Shown: positions 53,590-64,000 of the stretch, piece after piece
Position numbering within the stretch: the first letter of the stretch is position 1
Layout of the letters: each line of letters begins with the position of its first letter
From: an uncultured Planctomycetaceae bacterium
Lineage (GTDB): Bacteria; Planctomycetota; Planctomycetia; Pirellulales; PALSA-1355
DNA length: 64,000 nt
Reading direction: 5' to 3'
NCBI GenBank assembly: GCA_963779015.1
Contig: CAVZWY010000029.1
Location: forward strand, 35,153 to 99,152
Notes under the pieces: model-generated
Seen by the model: only the letters and a program-made list of their open reading frames with translations
What the model was told of the DNA's origin: nothing
The model's database searches: none
Made by a program: the position numbers and the translations under genes

Positions 53590-54789
53590 ATGGCTACGGA
53601 ATTGGTTGAAGCGGGTGCCGATGGGACGATTCCTGGCACAGGATTCACGAAAGCCCATCAGCTCTTTCGCGAGTCGGTGCGCCGCTTCATCGACCAGGAA
53701 ATCAATCCCTACGTCGACGAATGGGAACGCGATAAGATGTTCCCCGCGCACGAGGTCTTCAAGAAGGCGGGCGATCTCGGTTTGCTCGGCTTGTCCTACC
53801 CGGAAGAGTACGGCGGCGCCGGCGCGGACTATTGGTACAACATGGCGCTTTCCGAGGAGTTGGCGCACGTCAGTTGCGGCGCGATTCCGATGGCCTTGGG
53901 CGTGCAGTGCGACATGGCCACACCGGCTCTGAATACGTACGGCTCGCACGAACTCAAGAAACAATTCCTCGAACCGGCCATTCGCGGCGACGCCGTGTGC
54001 AGCGTGGCGGTCACTGAGCCCGAAGCCGGCAGTGACGTCGCGGGCATTCGCACCAAGGCCGAACGACAGGGCGGCGAATACGTCATCAACGGCAGCAAGC
54101 TCTATATCACCAACGGTGCGCAAGCCGATTGGATTTGCCTGCTCGCGCGGACGTCGTCGGGCACGGGCTATAAAGGCATGTCGCTGATCGTCGTGCCTAC
54201 CGACGTGAAGGGATTCGTGGTCGCCAAGAAGCTGGAAAAGATGGGCAACTGGGCCAGTGATACCGCCGAATTGGTTTTCGACAACGTGCGCGTGCCGGTA
54301 TCCAACTGTATCGGCGAAGAAGGCATGGGCTTCATCTATCAGATGCAGCAGTTCCAGAACGAACGCCTGGTCAGCTCGCTGGGGGCAGCCGCGGCCGCCG
54401 AGAAGATCCTGAAAATGACCATCGAGTACTGCCGCGGACGCAAGACCTTCGGCAAGCCGCTGATCGAGAATCAGTGGATCTACTTCAAGCTCACCGAGTT
54501 GATTTCCGAAGTCGAGTTTCTCCGGCAGATGTGTTATCACTGCGGCCGGTTGATGGACCGGGGGCAGGACTACACGCGTGAAGCCTCGATGGCCAAGCTC
54601 AAGGCCGGACGGCTGGCGCGGAAAGTGGCCGACACCTGCCTGCAATTCCACGGCGGCATGGGCTACATGGAAGAGTATCCAATGGCCCGCTACTACCGCG
54701 ATTCGCGCTTGTGGTCGATTGGCGCCGGCGCCGACGAGATCATGCTGGGCATTATCGCCAAGTACGAAGGCATCGCGCCGGGCCGATAG
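53590..54789 (+). CDS. Acyl-CoA dehydrogenase
   Basis: PEEYGG, VTEPEAGSDV, NGSKLYITNG, FQNERL, QFHGGMGY, IGAGADEIM. Confidence 0.95.
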   Translation: MATELVEAGADGTIPGTGFTKAHQLFRESVRRFIDQEINPYVDEWERDKMFPAHEVFKKAGDLGLLGLSYPEEYGGAGADYWYNMALSEELAHVSCGAIPMALGVQCDMATPALNTYGSHELKKQFLEPAIRGDAVCSVAVTEPEAGSDVAGIRTKAERQGGEYVINGSKLYITNGAQADWICLLARTSSGTGYKGMSLIVVPTDVKGFVVAKKLEKMGNWASDTAELVFDNVRVPVSNCIGEEGMGFIYQMQQFQNERLVSSLGAAAAAEKILKMTIEYCRGRKTFGKPLIENQWIYFKLTELISEVEFLRQMCYHCGRLMDRGQDYTREASMAKLKAGRLARKVADTCLQFHGGMGYMEEYPMARYYRDSRLWSIGAGADEIMLGIIAKYEGIAPGR

Positions 54790-54816
54790 TTGCGGCATGC
54801 CGCAGGCTCGCAGGCC

Positions 54817-57800
54817 CTAGGTCCAGTCGGCATGAGGTGACTGGACGGGACGTTCGGCTGCGGAATTGTCGTTGTCGCCGTTCGACTTGGCCGCGGTCGA
54901 CGACAAGCCGCCCTGGGCCGCACCACTTGCGACGGGAGTTTCCACCGGAGATTCCCACTCGACGTCTTCTTCCGGAGCATGTGCTCCGCCGCCGGTCATC
55001 AGCGTGTAGACGTAGTACATCGTCGGCGTGAGGAACAACACCAGCACGGTCGAAGCCAGCAGTCCGAAGCAGAGGCTGGTGGCCATCGGGATGACGATTT
55101 GCGCTTGGAACGACCGTTCGAGCAAGATCGGCAGCAAACCGGCCACGGTGGTGACGCTCGTTAGCATCACGGGCCGCAGCCGCTGCGCCGGCATCGACCA
55201 GCGCATCTTTGATCGACAGGCCGTCGGAGACGCGATGGTTGATAAAGTCGATCAACACGATCGAGTCGTTGACCACCACGCCGGTCAGCGCCACCAAACC
55301 GAACAAACTGAACATGGTGAGCTCCATGCCCATCAGAAAGTGGCCCCAAATGGCGCCGATGATGCCGAAAGGAATGATGGCCATGACCAACATAGGTTGC
55401 AGATACGAGCGAAACTCCACCGTCAAAAGCACGAACATGGCGACCATGGCGATCATCAGCCCGATGCGCAAGCTCTCCATCGATTCGGTGGTGCGTTCCT
55501 GCTGTCCTTCCCACAGCACGTGAACCGCGGGATACTTTTCCAGCAACCCGGGCATGAAGCTCGTGCGCAGGTCCTGCACGATGTTGTAGGCGTTGCCGGT
55601 CGTTTCATCGATGTCGGCCGTGATGGCGATGGCCCGCAACTGGTCGATGCGATTGATTTCGGCATAGCCCCGGGCCACGGTGACGTCGGCCATCTCGGTG
55701 ATCGGCCGTTCGCCGCCGCCGGCGGTACGAATGCGAATCTCCTCGAAGTCGGCCAGCGAACGGCGATCTTCCTGGGGATAGCGAACCATCAGCTTCACTT
55801 CGTGGCGGCCGCGCTGCAGCCGCATCACCTCTTCGCCGTAATACGATGCCCGCACCGTCTCGGCCAAATCGGCCAAGGGGATACCCATGGCCATGGCGTT
55901 TTGTTTGACCTTCAATTGAAACTCCCATTTGCCGGGACGCGAATCGTCGGCAATGTCAAACACCGAAGAGTAGTCCGACAAACGGGCCTTGGTTTCCTCG
56001 ACGGCGCTTTCGAGATGTTCCATGTGCTCGGCATCCGCCAGCAGCCGAAACTCGATGGGACGTCCGCCCGGGCCGAAGTCCGGAATCTGGAACGTCACGC
56101 TCTCGGCGCCGGGAAAGCCACCGGATGTTTTCCGCCATTGGGCAATAATCTCTCGGCTGTGGAGGTCGCGCTTGTCGGTTTCGACCAGTTCGACATTGAC
56201 GCCGCCCACGTGGCTCCCGGTGGAACGGGTGTCAGGTCCCATCGCTCCCGGCGCACTAATCTGACCGACGACGCGATGCACATAGCGCACGATCGGCGTT
56301 CCATGCGACTGTTGGTATTGGTCGTTGATCGCCATGATCGCCTTTTCGATCCGCGCCGTGGCGGCATCGGTCACGGCGGCCGGAGTGCCATCGGGATAAA
56401 CAATCCGGGCGATGATCTGCTTGCTGTCGATCGATGGAAATACGTTGAATGGCACCTTGCCCGAGGCCACCAAACCGAGCGAAACGAACAGAATGGCAAC
56501 GGCCACCGAGATCGTGATGGCGGTGTGGTCGATCGTCCAGCGTACGGCCGGACGATAATAGTCGTTGATGACCTTGGAAAGTCCGCGGTTCGACTGCACA
56601 TTGATCCAGGCAAATAGATCTCCCAAGCGGCGCAACGGATAGCTGAAATGGGTCCAGAGGAACGCCAGTCCGAATATCACGCTGCCGAACGTCGCCGACA
56701 CCGCCGGCGACATCACCCCCCGCCAACGCCGAGTCTTGCCCAGCAGCGACTCGGTGTCGGGCGGATGCCCAAGATGGCACGGCAGTACGAGCGTCGCCTC
56801 GGCGAGCGAAATGAGCAGCGCCGAAATCACCGCGGGCGGCATCACGCCGATGAACTTGCCCATGACACCCGCTACGTATGCCAGCGGCACGAAGGCAATC
56901 ACGGTCGTGAATACGGCGGAGAAAATACTGGGCACCACCTCGGCAGTTCCGTCAATCGCGGCGCGGAAGAAGCTTTTGCCGGCTTGCCGATGCGAATAGA
57001 TGTTTTCGCCAACCACGATGGCGTCGTCCACGAGGATGCCCAGCACCATCAGAAAAGCGAAACTGGAAAGCATGTTGAGCGTGTGGCCCGAAAGATACAA
57101 CACGGCGCACGTGCCCAGAATCGAGATGGGGATGCCCAGCGCCACCCAGAAGGCCAACCGCAACTCGAGGAACACGGCCAACAACAGGAAGACCAACAAC
57201 AGCCCTTGAATTCCGTTCTTGAGCAACATGTCGAGTCGGTCGCGCACCTCGATCGACTGGTCACCCCAGGTCACGAGCTGGTAGCCAGGCGGCAACTCGG
57301 TCGTCGCGACATAGCGTTTCACGTCGGCGACCATCGCCAGCAAGTCCTCGGTCTCGGTCCGCTCGACCGAAATGGCCAGGCCAGGGCGTCCGTTGATGCG
57401 GCTGATCGAGGTGACCGAATCGTCGAACTCGTCGCGCACCGTGCCCAAGTCGCCTACCCGCAACACCACGCCACCGGGAGAGGTCACCAGCGGGATGTCG
57501 AGAATATGCTCGCCAACGGAGCGCTTGTTTTTGCCCCGCAACAGCACTTCTTGCGAATCGGTGCGCATCGTGCCGCCGGGAATCTCCACGTTTTGGCGGC
57601 GTACGATCAGGGCCACCTGCTGCAGGGTCAGTCCATACTTGCGTAGCGTTTCTTCGGGAATTTCAATGTCGATTTGATACTCGCGCGCCCCGACGATGCT
57701 GGCCTGCGAGACGGCCGGCTGGTGCAGCAGGTCATCGCGCACGTGTTCCGCAATGTCGCGCAAGCGCAGGTCCGACTCCGGATCATCGCTTTGGGGCCCG

Positions 57801-58231
57801 AAAATGCCGACGCTGATCACGGGCTGGCGCATCGTGATCTGCTTGACTTCGCGTTCTTCGGCCAGTTCGGGAAAGCTGGGAATGCGATCCACCTCGGAGC
57901 GCACTTCGTTGAGCGTCTTTTGCACGTCTTCGATGTCGGCTTCCAGCTCGATGACGACGAAGCCCGCTCCTTCCTGAGCGATCGAAACCTGCTGTTTGAT
58001 GCCCTCGATCGGGCGCACGGCCTCTTCGATCTTTTGGCAGATGCCTTCCTCCACCTCGTCCGGGCTGGCGCCGGGATAAGGAACGCTGACGAGAATGATT
58101 TCCAGATCGAAGTCCGGAAACACTTCGCGTCGCATCCGCGTGAGGCAGAACAGGCCCACGATGATCGCCGAGACCATGAGGGTGTTCATGGCCGGTGAGT
58201 TGCGGACCGCCCATTGAATAACCGACTTCAT
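54817..58231 (-). CDS. RND efflux permease (AcrB family; apparent frameshift ~55186)
   Basis: GILVDDAIVVGENI, GVVVNDSIV; RLRPVMLTSVTT..GL.P in the shifted frame. Confidence 0.92.
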
Positions 58232-59649
58232 GGGGCGGCCTGCTCCAAAACGGCCATGCCGTCGACGGCCACGGCCAAGGGCGTGCTCACCAACTTCATC
58301 CCCGGCTGCAACCCCGACTCGTCGGCATAGACCAGCACGAGATCATCGGTGGCGTCGGCCACGCGCACTTTGCGAATGACCAGCTTGCCATTGGCAACCT
58401 GCCAGACTCGATTGCCCGGCTGAAGCGATCGATGCGGAATCTCCAACAGCGTCATCCGCGGCTGCGCGTGCACATTCACCGCAACGTACATGCCACGGAC
58501 CAAGGCCGGAGGTCCGACGGACGAAAAGGCCGGATCCTTGCTCCCTTCAACTCGCAGCACTTCGCGCGGTTTTGCCACCAGCACCCGGCAGGGCACGGTT
58601 CGAGTCCGTTCATCCAGTCCGATGCCATCGAACCGGGACAAGATACCCTCCCACGTATAGCGGCGACCGCCCAGTTCGTAGCCGATCGTTACCGGCGCGC
58701 GCGGGATCTGATAGTCGCGCGTGATGCTGCCGGCGTCCCCCTCGGGCATTTCGTTCGACTGGGCCCACAACCAGTACAGGTCTTCCATCCGCAGATTGCA
58801 CTTTACTTCAACCGCCGAGGTATCCTCGATCTTCACCAGCGAAGTGCCCTTTTGGACGTACGAATCTTCTTCGATCATTTCGCGAATGATGACGCCGTCG
58901 ATCGGGGCTACGACCTTCGTGCGGGCCAGGTCGAGCTGGGACTTTTCGAGCTGCGACTGCCAAAGGTCGTGGGCGTTCACCAGCCGGTTGCGCCGCGTGT
59001 TCAGCAATTGCAACTGGTTTTCCAGTTGGATCACCGAGTTGAGCGCCGACAACTCGTCGCGTTTGGTCTGCTCCAGTTCGGAATCCGAGATGATCTTTCG
59101 GCTGGCCAATTGCTCTTGCCGTTGCAAGTCCCTGCGCTGCAAGGTGTGCTGCTGTTTGGCCACTCCAACCAGGGCCTTGGTGTTGGAAACCTCGACGTCC
59201 AATTCTTCGATCTGCACGGCGGCCTGCGACAGTTCGCGGCGCAGCCGTTCCACGTCCAACTCGTAGTCGCGCGGATCGATCTCGACGAGCGGCGTGCCCG
59301 CAGTAACGTACGTGCCGGCGCGGCATTTTGCGGAGCGCTTGGCGATGCGGCCGGTAACTTCGGCAGCCAGGTCGATTTCGCGATGCGGCACGACCAGGCC
59401 ATCGACCGTGATCTCGAGCCCGCCGGAATGCGGCTGTACGACAACGGTTTCGACCATGGGCGCCACGGCTTGGACGCGCTGGTTTTGCGGCGCAGCCTTC
59501 GTGCTGCGCAACACCGCAAAAGCAACCAGCCCCAGGATGAGAATACCGATCGGCGCACCGATCCGCGCGGCCTCGACCAACAGCGAACTGCTGTCGGTTC
59601 GCGCGGATTTCTCAGTGCGAGATAGAGGAGCAGCCAAGTCTTGCTTCAT
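58228..59649 (-). CDS. RND periplasmic adaptor (membrane fusion protein)
   Basis: TM anchor, AEVTGRI, long coiled coil, APIDGVI, RTRT, GMYV; ATGA overlap with the permease. Confidence 0.9.
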   Translation of the reverse strand: MKQDLAAPLSRTEKSARTDSSSLLVEAARIGAPIGILILGLVAFAVLRSTKAAPQNQRVQAVAPMVETVVVQPHSGGLEITVDGLVVPHREIDLAAEVTGRIAKRSAKCRAGTYVTAGTPLVEIDPRDYELDVERLRRELSQAAVQIEELDVEVSNTKALVGVAKQQHTLQRRDLQRQEQLASRKIISDSELEQTKRDELSALNSVIQLENQLQLLNTRRNRLVNAHDLWQSQLEKSQLDLARTKVVAPIDGVIIREMIEEDSYVQKGTSLVKIEDTSAVEVKCNLRMEDLYWLWAQSNEMPEGDAGSITRDYQIPRAPVTIGYELGGRRYTWEGILSRFDGIGLDERTRTVPCRVLVAKPREVLRVEGSKDPAFSSVGPPALVRGMYVAVNVHAQPRMTLLEIPHRSLQPGNRVWQVANGKLVIRKVRVADATDDLVLVYADESGLQPGMKLVSTPLAVAVDGMAVLEQAAP

Positions 59650-60006: not shown

Positions 60007-60312
60007 TCAGGGCGCCGGCGTGGCTTCGCTTGCCGACAGCAAGCCGTCGCCATCTTCGTCCAGACGGCGGAAGTCGTCCGCCGGACCGAGAAACTCGCGA
60101 TTCGAGACGTCGCCGTCTCGGTTGCGGTCCATCGCCAAAAACCACTCGGGGCCGGAGGAGGGCGGGGCAGCCACGGTCAATACCGACTGCGGACGCCCGC
60201 GGCTGGCAACCGCCCGGAGCTGGTAGGGAATGCGGGTCAGATCGAGGTGCTCGTCAACAACGCAGTTTTCGGCTTCGATCCGACCCCAAGCGCCGCGCAA
60301 CGAAATGCTCAC
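60007..60312 (-). CDS. Small EF-hand protein
   Basis: GPEWFLAMDRNRDGDVSNREF and LDEDGDGLLSASEA (two EF loops); GTG start overlaps the upstream TGA (GTGA). Confidence 0.65.
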   Translation of the reverse strand: MSISLRGAWGRIEAENCVVDEHLDLTRIPYQLRAVASRGRPQSVLTVAAPPSSGPEWFLAMDRNRDGDVSNREFLGPADDFRRLDEDGDGLLSASEATPAP

Positions 60313-61148
60313 GACGCGTGGGCCGAGGAAAGCAGCGGCTGGGGGCGTGGGGCCGCTGGCTGTTCGCCATATTGCCAAAGCACGCCGCGGCTGCCTTCGC
60401 ATTGGAAGCATATCAGCCGCGACCCGCGAAAGTGATTGAGCAAGCGGACCGTCTCCGGCAAGCGGCTGGCGACGCCATCAGGCCCCATCAACGGATCGTC
60501 AATCCGCGCGGGCCAGTGCTGTTCTTCAAAGGCCGCCAGGACCGACTCCTGGTCGAACGAGGGCACCGTGAAACGTTTCACGACGGTCTGGCCGATCCGC
60601 AGCTCATGCCGATCACGGTCCCAATGCGGCGCGGGTGGGTCGGGTGACGTCATTTGCTCGTGAAGCGAACGCTCAACCGCGGAAAAGTCGATCCGTGGCC
60701 CACGCGAACCAGCCTGGCCGCGGACTTCGCGCGCCAACGTTGCTCCGGCCGGCGTCAGCACGAAGCAAGATCGCTTGCCGAACACAACGCGCTCGCGCGT
60801 GCGGAAGGCGCGCGTTGCCTCGCTGCTGGCATCGATCTCGATCGCGTGCTCGATCAATCCGCGCGCGTGAAGCCAACGGAGATCATTGTTCGAGAGCTTG
60901 AGCCGCCGCAAGCTCGACAGTTCGACGGCAAAATCCCAGGGCGTGGCTTGCAGATCCTGGGCATAGTCGAGCCCTTCGAGCAAACTGGCAAGTGCAGCCC
61001 CGATCGGTCCATCGAGCGTGACGCCCAATACCGCGGGCGTGCTCGATAGTTCGGAAGTGGGTGGGTTATCGAAGCCGATTTCCGCCGGAGGGCGTTCGGT
61101 ATTTTCCGCTGGAGGGTATTCGATCGTCGGCATTTTCAAGGTGGCCAT
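60309..61148 (-). CDS. Uncharacterised putative winged-helix regulator, paralog 1
   Basis: RBS ggag; WDFAVE..DLRWL...G.IEH..E..CFVLT..G and PHWD...ELR....VKRF..P..QE.VL.AFEE..WP.RIDDPL. Confidence 0.75.
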   Translation of the reverse strand: MATLKMPTIEYPPAENTERPPAEIGFDNPPTSELSSTPAVLGVTLDGPIGAALASLLEGLDYAQDLQATPWDFAVELSSLRRLKLSNNDLRWLHARGLIEHAIEIDASSEATRAFRTRERVVFGKRSCFVLTPAGATLAREVRGQAGSRGPRIDFSAVERSLHEQMTSPDPPAPHWDRDRHELRIGQTVVKRFTVPSFDQESVLAAFEEQHWPARIDDPLMGPDGVASRLPETVRLLNHFRGSRLICFQCEGSRGVLWQYGEQPAAPRPQPLLSSAHAS

Positions 61149-61237
61149 GGCTATGTCTCCGCGTCGAGAGAATCATCAAAGTCGGCGCCATCATGGTTGT
61201 CTTCTCCCTGCCGTTCTCTGTCCGCCAAAGGGCCGCC

Positions 61238-61276
61238 AAAAAAAAGCCCGTGCTCTCCGTCAATGGTGAGCCGGGC
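61238..61276 (-). terminator. Leader terminator (attenuator) upstream of paralog 1
   Basis: Minus strand GCCCGGCTC..GAGCACGGGC followed by T8. Confidence 0.75.
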
Positions 61277-61314
61277 ATACATACCCTGCGTCTCGGCTAA
61301 TCCTAAGCGGACTA

Positions 61315-61342
61315 AGCATACCGATTTAGCGGGGTTTGTCAA
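61315..61342 (-). promoter_or_regulatory. Sigma70 promoter for paralog 1
   Basis: Minus strand TTGACA-N16-TATGCT. Confidence 0.7.
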
Positions 61343-61504
61343 CCATGCTGGTGTTAGTGATTGGTGCGATTCATGCGCGAAACCAATTCGGGCAATCTGC
61401 TCCTCGGGCGCACTCGACACGGCCGCCGGCTCGACTATGATCTTGAGAGGCCACTGCACATTGATACTCACTCTGCCCAACTCACCTCGACGACTACTTG
61501 CCCC

Positions 61505-62245
61505 ATGCCGAGGACTGGTACCGACTTGCTGTGCCCGCCGGAACCGCAGAGCCAGAGCGAGGCGGCGGCGATTTCGCGGGCGGATGTCCGACCCCACATG
61601 AGCGAAGCATTGGCTTTGCTCTTGCAAGCGCATGACTATGCGCTGGAGCTCGGACAGGACAGTTGGGATATGGCCGTCGAACTGGAGATACTTCGGTCGG
61701 CCAAACTGAGCAACAGCGACTTGCGCTGGCTGTTGGCCAAGGGATATATCGACCACGCCGTCGAGGCTACCGGAGCGGAGGACGCCGCGCGACACTTTCG
61801 CCGCTCTTTGCTATTGAAGTTTTCCGCTCCGACCTGCGTGGTACTGACTCGCTCGGGCGTGGCCGTTGCCCGCGAGGCATTGACGTCGGACCAATCCAAC
61901 GTCGCGGGCGGGCCGCAAGTCAGCATCTGCCAACTGTCGCCGGCGGACGAATTGACGGAGCGACCCAAGTGGGACGAGCAGCGGCGGCAATTGCGCGTGG
62001 GCCGCGCACTGGTGAAGGAGTTCAAGCTACCCTCGCCGAATCAGGAAACGGTGCTGATGGCGTTCGAGGAAGAAGGCTGGCCCCCGAGGATCGACGACCC
62101 GTTGCCACCGGTGGCGCAGCTCGATCCGAGACGTCGGTTGCACGATACGATCAAGGCGCTCAATCGCAAGCAGAAGCACGGCTTGATCCGATTTCGCGGC
62201 GACGGCAGCGGCGAGGGGATTCGCTGGGAACCGTTGAATTCCTAG
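61505..62245 (+). CDS. Uncharacterised putative winged-helix regulator, paralog 2 (start uncertain)
   Basis: Same motif series as 60309-61148, plus RRLHDTIKALNR...IRFRGDGSGEGIRW. Confidence 0.75.
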   Translation: MPRTGTDLLCPPEPQSQSEAAAISRADVRPHMSEALALLLQAHDYALELGQDSWDMAVELEILRSAKLSNSDLRWLLAKGYIDHAVEATGAEDAARHFRRSLLLKFSAPTCVVLTRSGVAVAREALTSDQSNVAGGPQVSICQLSPADELTERPKWDEQRRQLRVGRALVKEFKLPSPNQETVLMAFEEEGWPPRIDDPLPPVAQLDPRRRLHDTIKALNRKQKHGLIRFRGDGSGEGIRWEPLNS

Positions 62246-62528
62246 CCGTTTGGATCCACGCCGGCAGTTGGCGGACACTGCCGTCAAACGCTTTTCGATC
62301 GCGAAATCTGGCCGCCAGGGTTGCGTCTCGCTCCGGAGCGTGCCCCCAGCATTCCCCTCCATTCACCTTGGCGACGAAATCGTCGCGACTATGCTTTTGA
62401 TTTGTGACTCGCCGCTGCAAGTTCGTAGCGAGCGGTTCGATATGCGGGCCGGGAGTCGGGGTCTGGAAGGCGCGGTTGGGGCAGCCGTGTTGCCACGCAT
62501 GCGCGCCTTCCATGTCTAGGTCAAAAGC

Positions 62529-63388
62529 ATGTCACACTTCGAGCCTCGCGGGCTCGGCTGGCTCCCCAGCCTGCCAGATTTCCGCGATTTTGCAGCCGAC
62601 GCGGCTCCTGCCGACGCGTGGCTCGAACAATTCGCGCCGCGGGCGCGGCACCGCCGCCCAGGTCGACCAACGTCGATTTGCGCGATTATTTCGTCGATGT
62701 CGACGACCAATTGAGTTTGCACTCGTCCGCGGCGCACGCTTGTGCCGGATTGGTCGAATACTTCGAGCGGCGCGCGAACGGGCGGCTGCTGCGTCCCTCG
62801 CGGCTTTTTCTCTACCAAAACACGCTACGCCTGGCCGGAACGCAGCAGGTCAGCGTTGCTGTCGATTTGCGCACTACACTGAAAGCAATGGTTCGTTGCG
62901 GACTTCCGCCGGAGCGTTATTGGCCGTACGAAACCGATCGTTTGCCACTACAACCCGACCCGTTCTTGTACTCATTTCCCGAGCCGTGCCGTTCCGTGCG
63001 TTATGTCCGTTTGGATCGGCGTGGAGCGAGCGGGGTGCAGACGCTCCAGATCGTCAAGGCATTTATCGCCGCGGGCTTTCCCTCGGCATTTGGATTTCCA
63101 GTTCCGAATTCGTTGTCGCTCAATCCGGATATTCCCTATCGCCCCACCTTCGATTCGTTGATCGGCGGACAGGCCGTCATTGCCGTCGGCTACGACGACC
63201 GCTGGTTGCGCGGGTCGCGCGGCGCGTTGCTGGTGCGAAGCTCATGGGGAAACGCATTTGGCGAGAACGGATACGCGTGGCTGCCCTACGCTTACGTAGA
63301 AGAACAATTGGCAGTCGATTTCTGGACGTTGTTCCATCCCGATTGGATCACGTCCGGCGAATTCGACCTGCCTGAAGTACCTGAGTGA
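62529..63388 (+). CDS. C1A papain-fold peptidase homolog with substituted catalytic residues (apparent frameshift ~62645)
   Basis: GWLP.LPDFRD propeptide, VDLR, DQ, SRLFLY, WPY, VGYDD, SWG..FGE.GY.WLPY.Y; C->S, H->Q, N->S. Confidence 0.85.
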
Positions 63389-63410: not shown

Positions 63411-63582
63411 GCACCGTGACTCGGCCTAGTCGTGTAAACCCCGCGAACCCGAATCGAGCTGCGTGAGCATTCACGACAGCGTCCATACAGCTCCCATACA
63501 GGAGCCGTTGTGGGTTCCCGCGAGCGACTAGAATGACGCTTCACGGTTCGCGATTGTGTCCGAGTCAAAAGGGGAAATAGCC

Positions 63583-64000
63583 ATGGTCAGCCGTACACCG
63601 TCCGATGGAAACGCCTCCGCCGGCCAGCAATCCGCCGCCGCGACGCGCGACGTGTTTCGCGTTTTGTTCCGCCACAAACGGAAAATGCTAGTGTTTTTCT
63701 GCACCACCATGGGTTTGGTCGTGCTGGGATTGATCTTCTTCCCAAGAACCTACACGTCGGACGCGCGCTTGTTCGTTCGTCTGGGAAAAGAGAGCATCGC
63801 GTTGGATCCCACGGCCACGGTCACGCAGACCGTCGCCGTGCAGGATACGCGCGAAAACGAAATCAACTCGGAAGTCGAAATCCTCCGCAGTCGCGCCCTG
63901 ATGGAAGATGTCGTCACGAAACTTGGACCGGACGAGATCCTCTACGGAGGCTCGGGCGGCGGAGCCAGCAGTAAGCTGTGGAGCGCGCTGACGGCGCCGG
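63583..64000 (+). CDS. GumC/Wzc-like polysaccharide co-polymerase, 5' part
   Basis: RBS aagggg; RDVFRVLFRHK + TM, Y.S.ARLFV, EINSEVEILRSR.L.EDVV..LG. Confidence 0.85.
   Translation, partial: MVSRTPSDGNASAGQQSAAATRDVFRVLFRHKRKMLVFFCTTMGLVVLGLIFFPRTYTSDARLFVRLGKESIALDPTATVTQTVAVQDTRENEINSEVEILRSRALMEDVVTKLGPDEILYGGSGGGASSKLWSALTAP

Follow-up and report, generated by a model that had tools for sequence, protein, structure and literature searches.

Could a divergent pair of paralogous genes without a family name encode DNA-binding regulators of an exopolysaccharide locus? This question is raised by a 64,000-nucleotide stretch of contig CAVZWY010000029.1 (positions 35,153 to 99,152, referred to below as the window) from the 6.64-Mb genome, in 52 contigs, of an uncultured Planctomycetaceae bacterium. 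Near the end of the window two such genes stand back to back, and they are termed paralogue 1 (minus strand) and paralogue 2 (plus strand) here. An earlier note, made from the sequence alone, had described them as two-domain proteins with an OmpR-like C-terminus, a second winged helix in front of it and no receiver domain. In our judgement, the best reading, to which we give about an even chance, is a DNA-binding regulator of the polysaccharide locus that is accompanied by a diverged partner. The pair is laid out as follows.

60309-61148, minus strand: open reading frame (ORF) of paralogue 1, 279 residues, 42% identical to paralogue 2; subfamily B by its clade
~60696-61004, minus strand: N-domain of paralogue 1
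~60354-60629, minus strand: C-domain of paralogue 1
61361-62245, plus strand: open frame of paralogue 2, 294 residues; likely gene 61505-62245, 246 residues, subfamily A
~61592-61897, plus strand: N-domain of paralogue 2, winged helix
~61961-62233, plus strand: C-domain of paralogue 2, OmpR-like

The gene pair and its two domains

Both ORFs were found where the earlier note had placed them and contain the strings that it quoted, and the two products share 42% identity across 217 residues (BLASTP, E 7e-48). They are the only copies of the family in their own genome. Paralogue 2, whose frame is open from 61361, most likely starts at the ATG at 61505, since its homologues begin where it has Met49 and the longer ORF would enclose a conserved promoter-like site (61414-61441).

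The full-length AlphaFold2 model, built on a 76-row alignment with a predicted local distance difference test score (pLDDT) of 85.9, consists of two domains joined by a low-confidence linker. The N-domain (residues 30-131) is modelled as a winged helix between long N- and C-terminal helices, that is, helices 30-49 and 116-131 border a core of three helices and two strands, as in MarR-like proteins. Its best structural matches are MarR/PadR/ArsR-type chains, with Z 8-8.9, a root-mean-square deviation (rmsd) of 2.1-2.7 Å and 77-83 residues aligned, while the MarR-type hidden Markov models (HMMs) of Pfam and NCBIfam gave no match at E<=1. Together with the lack of a Response_reg match in the Pfam search, the model agrees with the earlier claims of a second winged helix and of a missing receiver domain.

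The C-domain was also modelled alone (97 residues, 88-row alignment, pLDDT 94.4), and in the prediction three strands and a helix are followed by a short strand, a loop of 10 residues, a second helix and a beta hairpin. When 48,161 representative chains were searched, OmpR/PhoB-type effector domains took each of the top 22 rows (Z 4.6-6.7), with 82-91 of the 97 residues aligned. A second structural search again put 22 OmpR/PhoB-type rows first, with VanR as the best (Z 7.1), and PhoB bound to pho-box DNA was matched at Z 6.7 over 89 residues. The receiver-less proteins ToxR, TcpP and AfsR are also among the matches, at Z 4.3-4.9. The weight of this likeness lies in the uniformity of the list and in the coverage of the full domain. 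The predicted model has the beta platform, alpha1, the recognition helix and the C-terminal beta hairpin of the OmpR fold. Residues 49-58 (DDPLPPVAQLDP) form a loop between strand 46-48 and helix 59-71, and the helix-turn-helix (HTH) of the model is incomplete because this loop leaves it without alpha2. The place of alpha2, called the first HTH helix, is thus taken by an invariant or nearly invariant WPxRIDDPLPP loop. In sum, both domains are predicted with high confidence to have winged-helix-type folds.

Two winged helices on one chain also occur in Rep-type replication initiators such as RepE, which is the first Foldseek row for the full model as well as for the C-domain model, so that initiators or partition proteins of a mobile element could be considered. 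However, these RepE matches are weak (the full model has E 6.4e-3 with an rmsd of 15.8 Å, the C-domain model E 0.47), Rep chains do not exceed Z 4.4 in the structural searches, the pair matched no phage or defence family, and the context is one of chromosomal polysaccharide synteny across 80 related loci. Such a role is extremely improbable.

The charges of the two proteins are reversed. In paralogue 2, the N-domain is acidic (net -4, isoelectric point 5.5) and the C-domain basic (net +5, isoelectric point 10.2), with the recognition-type helix and wing alone accounting for +5, while in paralogue 1 the N-domain has +2 and the C-domain -2. The recognition-type helix and the wing are almost fixed among the orthologues of paralogue 2 and vary freely among those of paralogue 1, with erosion of the wing motif GDGSGEG. 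The earlier remark on the erosion of both elements in paralogue 1 is confirmed by their departure from the family consensus and by the C-domain charge of -2 versus +5. Across the family, the second C-domain helix (RRRLHDTIKALNRKQK in paralogue 2) hardly varies; the median net charge of this segment is +4 in 88 sequences, with the paralogue 1 group at the low end.

Family range, subfamilies and selection

A word-indexed protein search found 660 relatives at E<=0.001, and the 120 of them that were listed have no Pfam domain, bear 'hypothetical protein' as their sole source name and come mostly from Pirellulales and other Planctomycetota. The neighbours in the ESM Atlas are likewise unnamed Planctomycetota clusters, and PADLOC and PHROGs gave no matches for the pair. 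In contigs sampled at one genome per species, 179 stretches encode a relative, from which 80 loci with 89 family genes were kept for comparison (single loci are given by L numbers). Both paralogues are members of an unnamed, Planctomycetota-wide family of cytoplasmic proteins of ~250 residues. A full-text search of the published literature, judged from its listings and the openings of abstracts, brought up no description of the family. As a side observation, the family gene of L050, from a metagenome-assembled genome labelled Chloracidobacterium sp. (Acidobacteriota), nests among Planctomycetota as the sister of L058 (support 99), which reflects either a binning error or gene transfer.

With a profile of the C-domain only, the range is much wider, namely 5063 representatives at E<=0.001 and 3490 at E<=1e-10 in a library clustered at 50% identity. 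Architectures were taken from the best 150 of the 5063. Among these 150, the metagenomic protein P0125 (476 residues) is a complete N-C-N-C tandem, whose two units are 46% and 34% identical to paralogue 2, and three further metagenomic proteins (P0123, P0124 and P0126) have two C-domains each. In two longer proteins, a lone C-domain follows an N-terminal part that is unrelated to the family. Based on these forms, the C-domain is a mobile module, and joint action of two family units appears plausible. The earlier note had suggested an activator/antagonist or heterodimer pair, and the fused forms are the sole support for the heterodimer. The search for longer forms revealed no fusion to a receiver or papain-like domain, which is weak evidence.

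Then, is the pair the product of a recent duplication? In a quick IQ-TREE tree of 91 rows, paralogue 2 belongs to a 15-row clade, subfamily A (support 99), while paralogue 1 and its five orthologues form a 6-row clade (support 99) enclosed in the 16-row clade of subfamily B (support 96). Other subfamily B genes head their own papain-like and polysaccharide modules in other genomes, and in several genomes an A gene and a B gene are found on different contigs. The sequences consequently place the pair as two old subfamilies and not as a recent or local duplication. The divergent arrangement occurs in L003-L006 and L009, with a variant in L078, and tandem pairs of family genes occur in L022, L025 and L026. 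The paralogue 1 lineage has no papain-like partner of its own.

The selection on the two genes differs. For the L003-L004 orthologues, the least saturated pair (synonymous divergence dS ~0.6), paralogue 1 has a ratio of non-synonymous to synonymous divergence (dN/dS) of 0.33 and paralogue 2 one of 0.137, that is, paralogue 1 evolves ~2.4 times faster. This faster evolution, the erosion of the GDGSGEG motif and the loss of the basic C-domain charge would all be expected of a decaying, functionless copy. However, none of the 6 genomes with the gene has an interrupted ORF, and the dN/dS ratio is well below 1. Conservation extends over the N-domain and the first half of the C-domain, and it is strong in the leader and the promoter described below. 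Decay is consequently very improbable, and it appears preferable to regard paralogue 1 as a diverged partner.

Gene neighbourhood and control regions

The genes on both sides of the pair, as far as they lie in the window, are as follows.

62529-63388, plus strand: papain-like (C1) gene, starting at ATG 62529 and split over two frames (62529-62714 and 62618-63388)
63556-64000, plus strand: start of the gene for the polysaccharide co-polymerase (PCP, chain-length determinant), with which the exopolysaccharide cluster opens before it runs past the window
58228-59649, minus strand: membrane-fusion protein gene, downstream of paralogue 1
54752-58231, minus strand: RND pump gene, downstream of paralogue 1

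Downstream of paralogue 2, the papain-like gene and the PCP gene are followed by genes for a BY-kinase-like ATPase, a priming sugar transferase, a polysaccharide deacetylase and a FemAB-like GNAT protein, as well as a Wzy_C protein, GT2, GT4 and WecG transferases and a PAS protein. All scores of the XrtA/PEP-CTERM-specific models are below their cut-offs at this locus, and it is therefore called a Wzx/Wzy-type exopolysaccharide locus and nothing narrower. Paralogue 2 stands at the head of it.

This neighbourhood recurs in the family. Based on the clustering of all ORFs of the loci and on Pfam scans of representatives, the recurrent neighbours include Wza-type exporters, GT4 transferases, deacetylases, Wzy_C proteins, co-polymerases, BY-kinases, Bac_transf proteins, flippases and epimerases. 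At least one polysaccharide gene lies within ~5 kb in 49 of the 80 loci, and a polysaccharide or papain-like gene in 64; the remaining 16, some of them short, have neither. A papain-like gene is found within 2 kb downstream on the same strand for 41 of the 79 family genes with at least 1500 bp of downstream sequence, and 19 of 42 papain-like genes have a co-polymerase gene after them within 1 kb. It should be noted, as a separate observation, that in L016, L022 and L074 a very large ORF (>1200 residues, no Pfam match at E<=1e-4) comes after the papain-like gene, and that in L021, where there is no papain-like gene, the same ORF directly follows the family gene. In all four loci it stands in place of the co-polymerase genes.

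The papain-like protein deserves attention in its own right. A bacterial papain-family protein in the PDB (3ois, deposited under the name 'Cysteine protease') is matched by the profile of the neighbour family with E 3e-34, 212 profile positions being covered. The alignment comprises 41 sequences, that is, the window copy and 40 of the 44 copies from the loci; those of L010 and L079, that of L082 (identical to L081) and L022:2205-2954 were omitted, the last being the first of two papain-like copies in L022 and containing an in-frame stop. PF00112 is matched at E<=0.01 by 37 of the 41 members, and the window copy scores 17.8 bits, below the cut-off of 20.7. The column of the catalytic Cys contains 37 Ser, 3 Gly, 1 Ala and no Cys, and that of the catalytic His 34 Gln, 3 His, 2 Arg, 1 Ile and 1 Thr, while the Asn column has 24 Asn and 13 Ser. 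Because the catalytic Cys and His columns are replaced, the protein is, as judged from the alignment, a pseudo-peptidase or an enzyme with another chemistry. A predicted complex of paralogue 2 with it scored 0.01 (mark 0.32), from a partner alignment without the conserved N-terminal 30 residues, and speaks neither for nor against binding.

On the other side of the pair, the order paralogue 1, membrane-fusion protein, RND pump is common to L003-L005. The RND pump ORF changes frame at ~55,170-55,190 (minus strand), where an Arg-rich nonsense tail follows ...ALVDAG, and the other frame carries on with a typical RND C-terminus (...RLRPVMLTSVTTVAGLLPILLERSFQAQ...); the change is either a real frameshift or an assembly indel. 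In the papain-like gene of the window, there is a 1-nt deletion near 62628-62632 relative to L003, in which the ORF is continuous. Two frameshifts within 8 kb suggest indel errors in the assembly. A 134-residue ORF with two EF-hand motifs (60007-60411, minus strand; EF-hand_5, E 1.9e-7) was also noticed, which overlaps the 3' end of paralogue 1 by ~100 nt, and a counterpart of this putative gene was not found in the 80 related loci.

In addition, a gene for a PAS-GGDEF diguanylate cyclase lies in or beside the module in 7 of the 80 loci. In L038, L061 and L073 it separates the family gene from the papain-like gene, in L033, L066 and L070 it adjoins the family gene, and in L037 it lies ~2.1 kb upstream on the opposite strand. 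Genes of HDOD-domain proteins are found near the family gene in other loci. These neighbours hint at a link to cyclic di-GMP (c-di-GMP) signalling, and they are consistent with the idea of the family as a small-signal receptor, for c-di-GMP for instance, whose activity, be it DNA binding or another, is switched by that signal; the invariant Arg/Asp-rich motifs would also suit a receptor. On the other hand, the PAS-GGDEF association is limited to 7 of the 80 loci, and no known c-di-GMP-binding domain or motif was matched in the Pfam search. Such a receptor is compatible with the other readings, although we consider it unlikely.

If paralogue 2 is a DNA-binding regulator of this locus, where would it bind, and how would its partner be controlled? 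The conserved elements of the two intergenic regions are listed below.

61414-61441, plus strand: promoter-like site TCGACA-16-TATGAT for paralogue 2, conserved in L003-L006
62343-62395, plus strand: conserved promoter region before the papain-like gene, with the candidate operator
61315-61342, minus strand: promoter-like site TTGACA-16-TATGCT for the paralogue 1 leader
61149-61311, minus strand: conserved leader of paralogue 1, 164 nt
61296-61308, minus strand: 5' hairpin of the leader, with AGGA in the loop
61246-61276, minus strand: terminator-like hairpin of the leader (-19.5 kcal/mol), followed by U8 at 61238-61245
61156-61171, minus strand: weak hairpin pairing the GGAGA Shine-Dalgarno-like site before the start codon

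Before the papain-like gene, three C-tracts (CCCC/CCCC/CACC) at 62343-62371 are phased at ~10 bp and run into TTGG, and TATGCT follows 18 nt after TTGG, at 62390-62395. The exact core TCCCC-N6-CACCTTG is present in L003, L005, L006, L008, L011 and L014, and variants of the C-tracts occur in L007, L009, L010 and L013; none was seen in L015, and L004 and L012 end before the region. The C-tracts at 62343-62371 are therefore a candidate operator, the basis of which is their conservation in the subfamily A loci only.

For paralogue 1, the 6 aligned loci all share the TTGAC of the promoter-like site and three of the six bases of TATGCT. The identity of the leader to that of the window is 83-86% in L003/L004 and 69-70% in L005/L006, at distances at which synonymous sites in the adjacent gene are already saturated (dS 1.3-1.4, window vs L003/L004). 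Pairing holds in 91% of the cells of the leader alignment, compared with 36-53% when the partner is slid, and 18 of the 31 pairs are altered on both sides, including 8 of the 12 in the two hairpin helices, in each case in an alignment fitted to the model. The covariance model of the leader (R1, from six sequences) has a single match in its own genome, and elsewhere it matches just upstream, on the same strand, of subfamily B genes in L077, L035, L023 and L026 (twice in the last). A search of Rfam with 60900-61700 returned no family match but three chance-level rows (E 1.7-5.2). A conserved leader peptide was also considered and rejected, since non-triplet indels shift the frames between orthologues. 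The conserved leader is consequently a candidate new cis-regulatory RNA, and it reads as an attenuator-type leader, in which read-through would be conditional on a signal. As a side observation, the same genome (G000) has nine CsrA-family genes above the Pfam cut-off (for example C9:15338-15493), which is an unusually large set.

Proposed role and known systems

Based on the above, the following mechanism is proposed. Paralogue 2 would use its basic C-domain to bind DNA, with two units paired by way of the N-domain, and would control the promoter of the downstream operon, which encodes the dead papain-like protein and the Wzx/Wzy-type exopolysaccharide pathway. Its binding site could be the phased C-tracts that abut the -35 region at 62343-62371, and the papain-like pseudo-enzyme is a candidate co-regulator or sensor. 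Paralogue 1, which keeps the N-domain but has lost the positive charge of the helix and wing, and which may be gated by its terminator-containing leader, is probably a modulating partner of paralogue 2 or a regulator with a changed specificity or target. The analysis itself shows that the two genes are paralogues, and it shows the folds in the models, the range of the family, its genomic setting, the loss of the catalytic residues in the papain-like protein and the conserved leader; we infer the DNA binding, the target promoter and operator, the dimerisation and the role of paralogue 1.

A number of results weigh against this proposal. Neither paralogue has a match in Pfam or NCBIfam at E<=1, and a profile search with the full-length family alignment found nothing among the PDB sequences at E<=10. 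Foldseek against the PDB gave nothing at E<=0.001 for the full model or for the C-domain model, and all Z scores of the C-domain are below 8, a range flagged as possibly reflecting a mere common arrangement. A search of the whole genome with PF00486 (Trans_reg_C) found 7 other genes and neither paralogue, and hhalign gave a probability of 0.1% when the C-domain alignment (88 rows) was compared with OmpR-type C-domains from 6 of those genes, a thin template alignment. Therefore, the fold that the earlier note saw in the C-terminus stands, while the C-domain is not a detectable member of Trans_reg_C and its model lacks alpha2. The acidic N-domain of paralogue 2 is unlike typical DNA-binding MarR domains, and the papain-like gene is missing within 2 kb downstream on the same strand for 38 of the 79 family genes. 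As for the operator, the C-tract pattern occurs once in the window against 0.23 expected, a count reached by 17 of 100 shuffles; the loose triple C-tract pattern, with 25 occurrences in the genome and 3 in a 1.5-Mb sample against 6-9 in shuffles, is not enriched; and k-mer enrichment in 86 upstream regions gave no family-wide operator motif, the sole words standing out being leader-derived ones that are counted twice in the divergent-pair loci. Finally, the leader hairpin is absent from the output of a simple terminator scanner, which its bulge probably explains.

Then, could these proteins act without binding DNA at all? The winged helices would in that case be protein-protein modules of a post-translational adaptor that, with the dead papain-like protein, adjusts the machinery of polysaccharide assembly, at the PCP/BY-kinase or at the priming transferase. 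Many winged-helix domains bind proteins, and ScpB, cullin/APC and Stn1 chains are found lower in the match list (Z 3.6-4.2). The HTH without alpha2, the surface loop WPxRIDDPLPP as the most conserved stretch, the acidic N-domain and the tight tie of the family to a pseudo-enzyme would also suit an adaptor. Moreover, a single-domain response regulator is reported to activate exopolysaccharide synthesis by binding the initiating phosphoglycosyl transferase (PMC12802240), and post-translational control of such pathways therefore has a precedent. However, the best structural matches are consistently DNA-binding effector domains covered over the whole domain, the helix and wing are strongly basic and nearly invariant, and a gene at the head of a locus with its own promoter is typical of a regulator. 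An adaptor is consequently a doubtful explanation, and DNA-binding regulation remains our preferred one.

A bolder form of the regulatory proposal can be put forward tentatively, and we would not expect it to hold in full. The family may represent an undescribed class of master regulators of exopolysaccharide loci in planctomycetes, in which an alpha2-less OmpR-like domain binds phased C-tracts at the -35 region as a homodimer, an A-B heterodimer or a fused chain, the papain-like sensor sets the activity, and subfamily B is gated by a new leader RNA that is possibly read by CsrA.

Why does it matter? Little has been charted of transcription control in Planctomycetota, whose attachment and life in biofilms rest on surface polysaccharides. 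The C-domain has no Pfam or NCBIfam entry yet counts thousands of cluster representatives, which amounts to a large annotation blind spot. If it binds DNA, it would provide a handle on the switching of polysaccharide production in planctomycetes, and it would show how far the OmpR/PhoB fold can drift, with one HTH helix lost and the role kept. The steady pairing with a papain-like protein that has lost its dyad would add a new case to the pseudo-enzymes that have been drawn into regulation.

Compared with known systems, the C-domain resembles the OmpR/PhoB effector domain (PF00486) in topology and size, in the beta platform, alpha1, the short strand, the basic recognition-type helix and the hairpin wing. 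It differs in having no sequence or profile similarity to that domain, and in an invariant loop of 10 residues, rich in Pro, that stands where that domain has alpha2 and the long alpha2-alpha3 loop. It is joined to a MarR-shaped domain, whereas OmpR/PhoB regulators have a receiver, a membrane anchor or a BTAD/STAND module in its place; ToxR, TcpP and the AfsR/SARP regulators are the receiver-less forms for comparison. OmpR/PhoB effector domains bind direct repeats in tandem, typically close to the -35 region, and the tandem C-domains on one chain in the family recall this mode of binding. The N-domain shares with MarR/PadR-type regulators the winged-helix core flanked by long terminal helices, but it has no HMM match, is acidic in paralogue 2, has a long wing insert and is followed by a different winged domain. 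Many MarR regulators sit upstream of RND pump genes, as paralogue 1 does.

The paralogue 1 leader has the order of an attenuator with an intrinsic terminator, that is, a promoter, ~70 nt, a strong hairpin with U8 and ~80 nt to the start codon; in contrast to known leaders, it has no Rfam match and no established alternative antiterminator fold. CsrA controls the leaders of polysaccharide operons such as pga, and the likeness to these consists of a GGA in a hairpin loop and a GGA at the ribosome-binding site; a CsrA reading of the leader is only an idea. The papain-like neighbour shares sequence homology with the papain-family cysteine protease 3ois, but not its catalytic Cys-His dyad. Receiver-less OmpR-type regulators and MarR-type domains are both known kinds. 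The new elements are the C-domain without alpha2, its fusion to a MarR-shaped domain, the association with polysaccharide loci and a pseudo-papain partner, and the leader.

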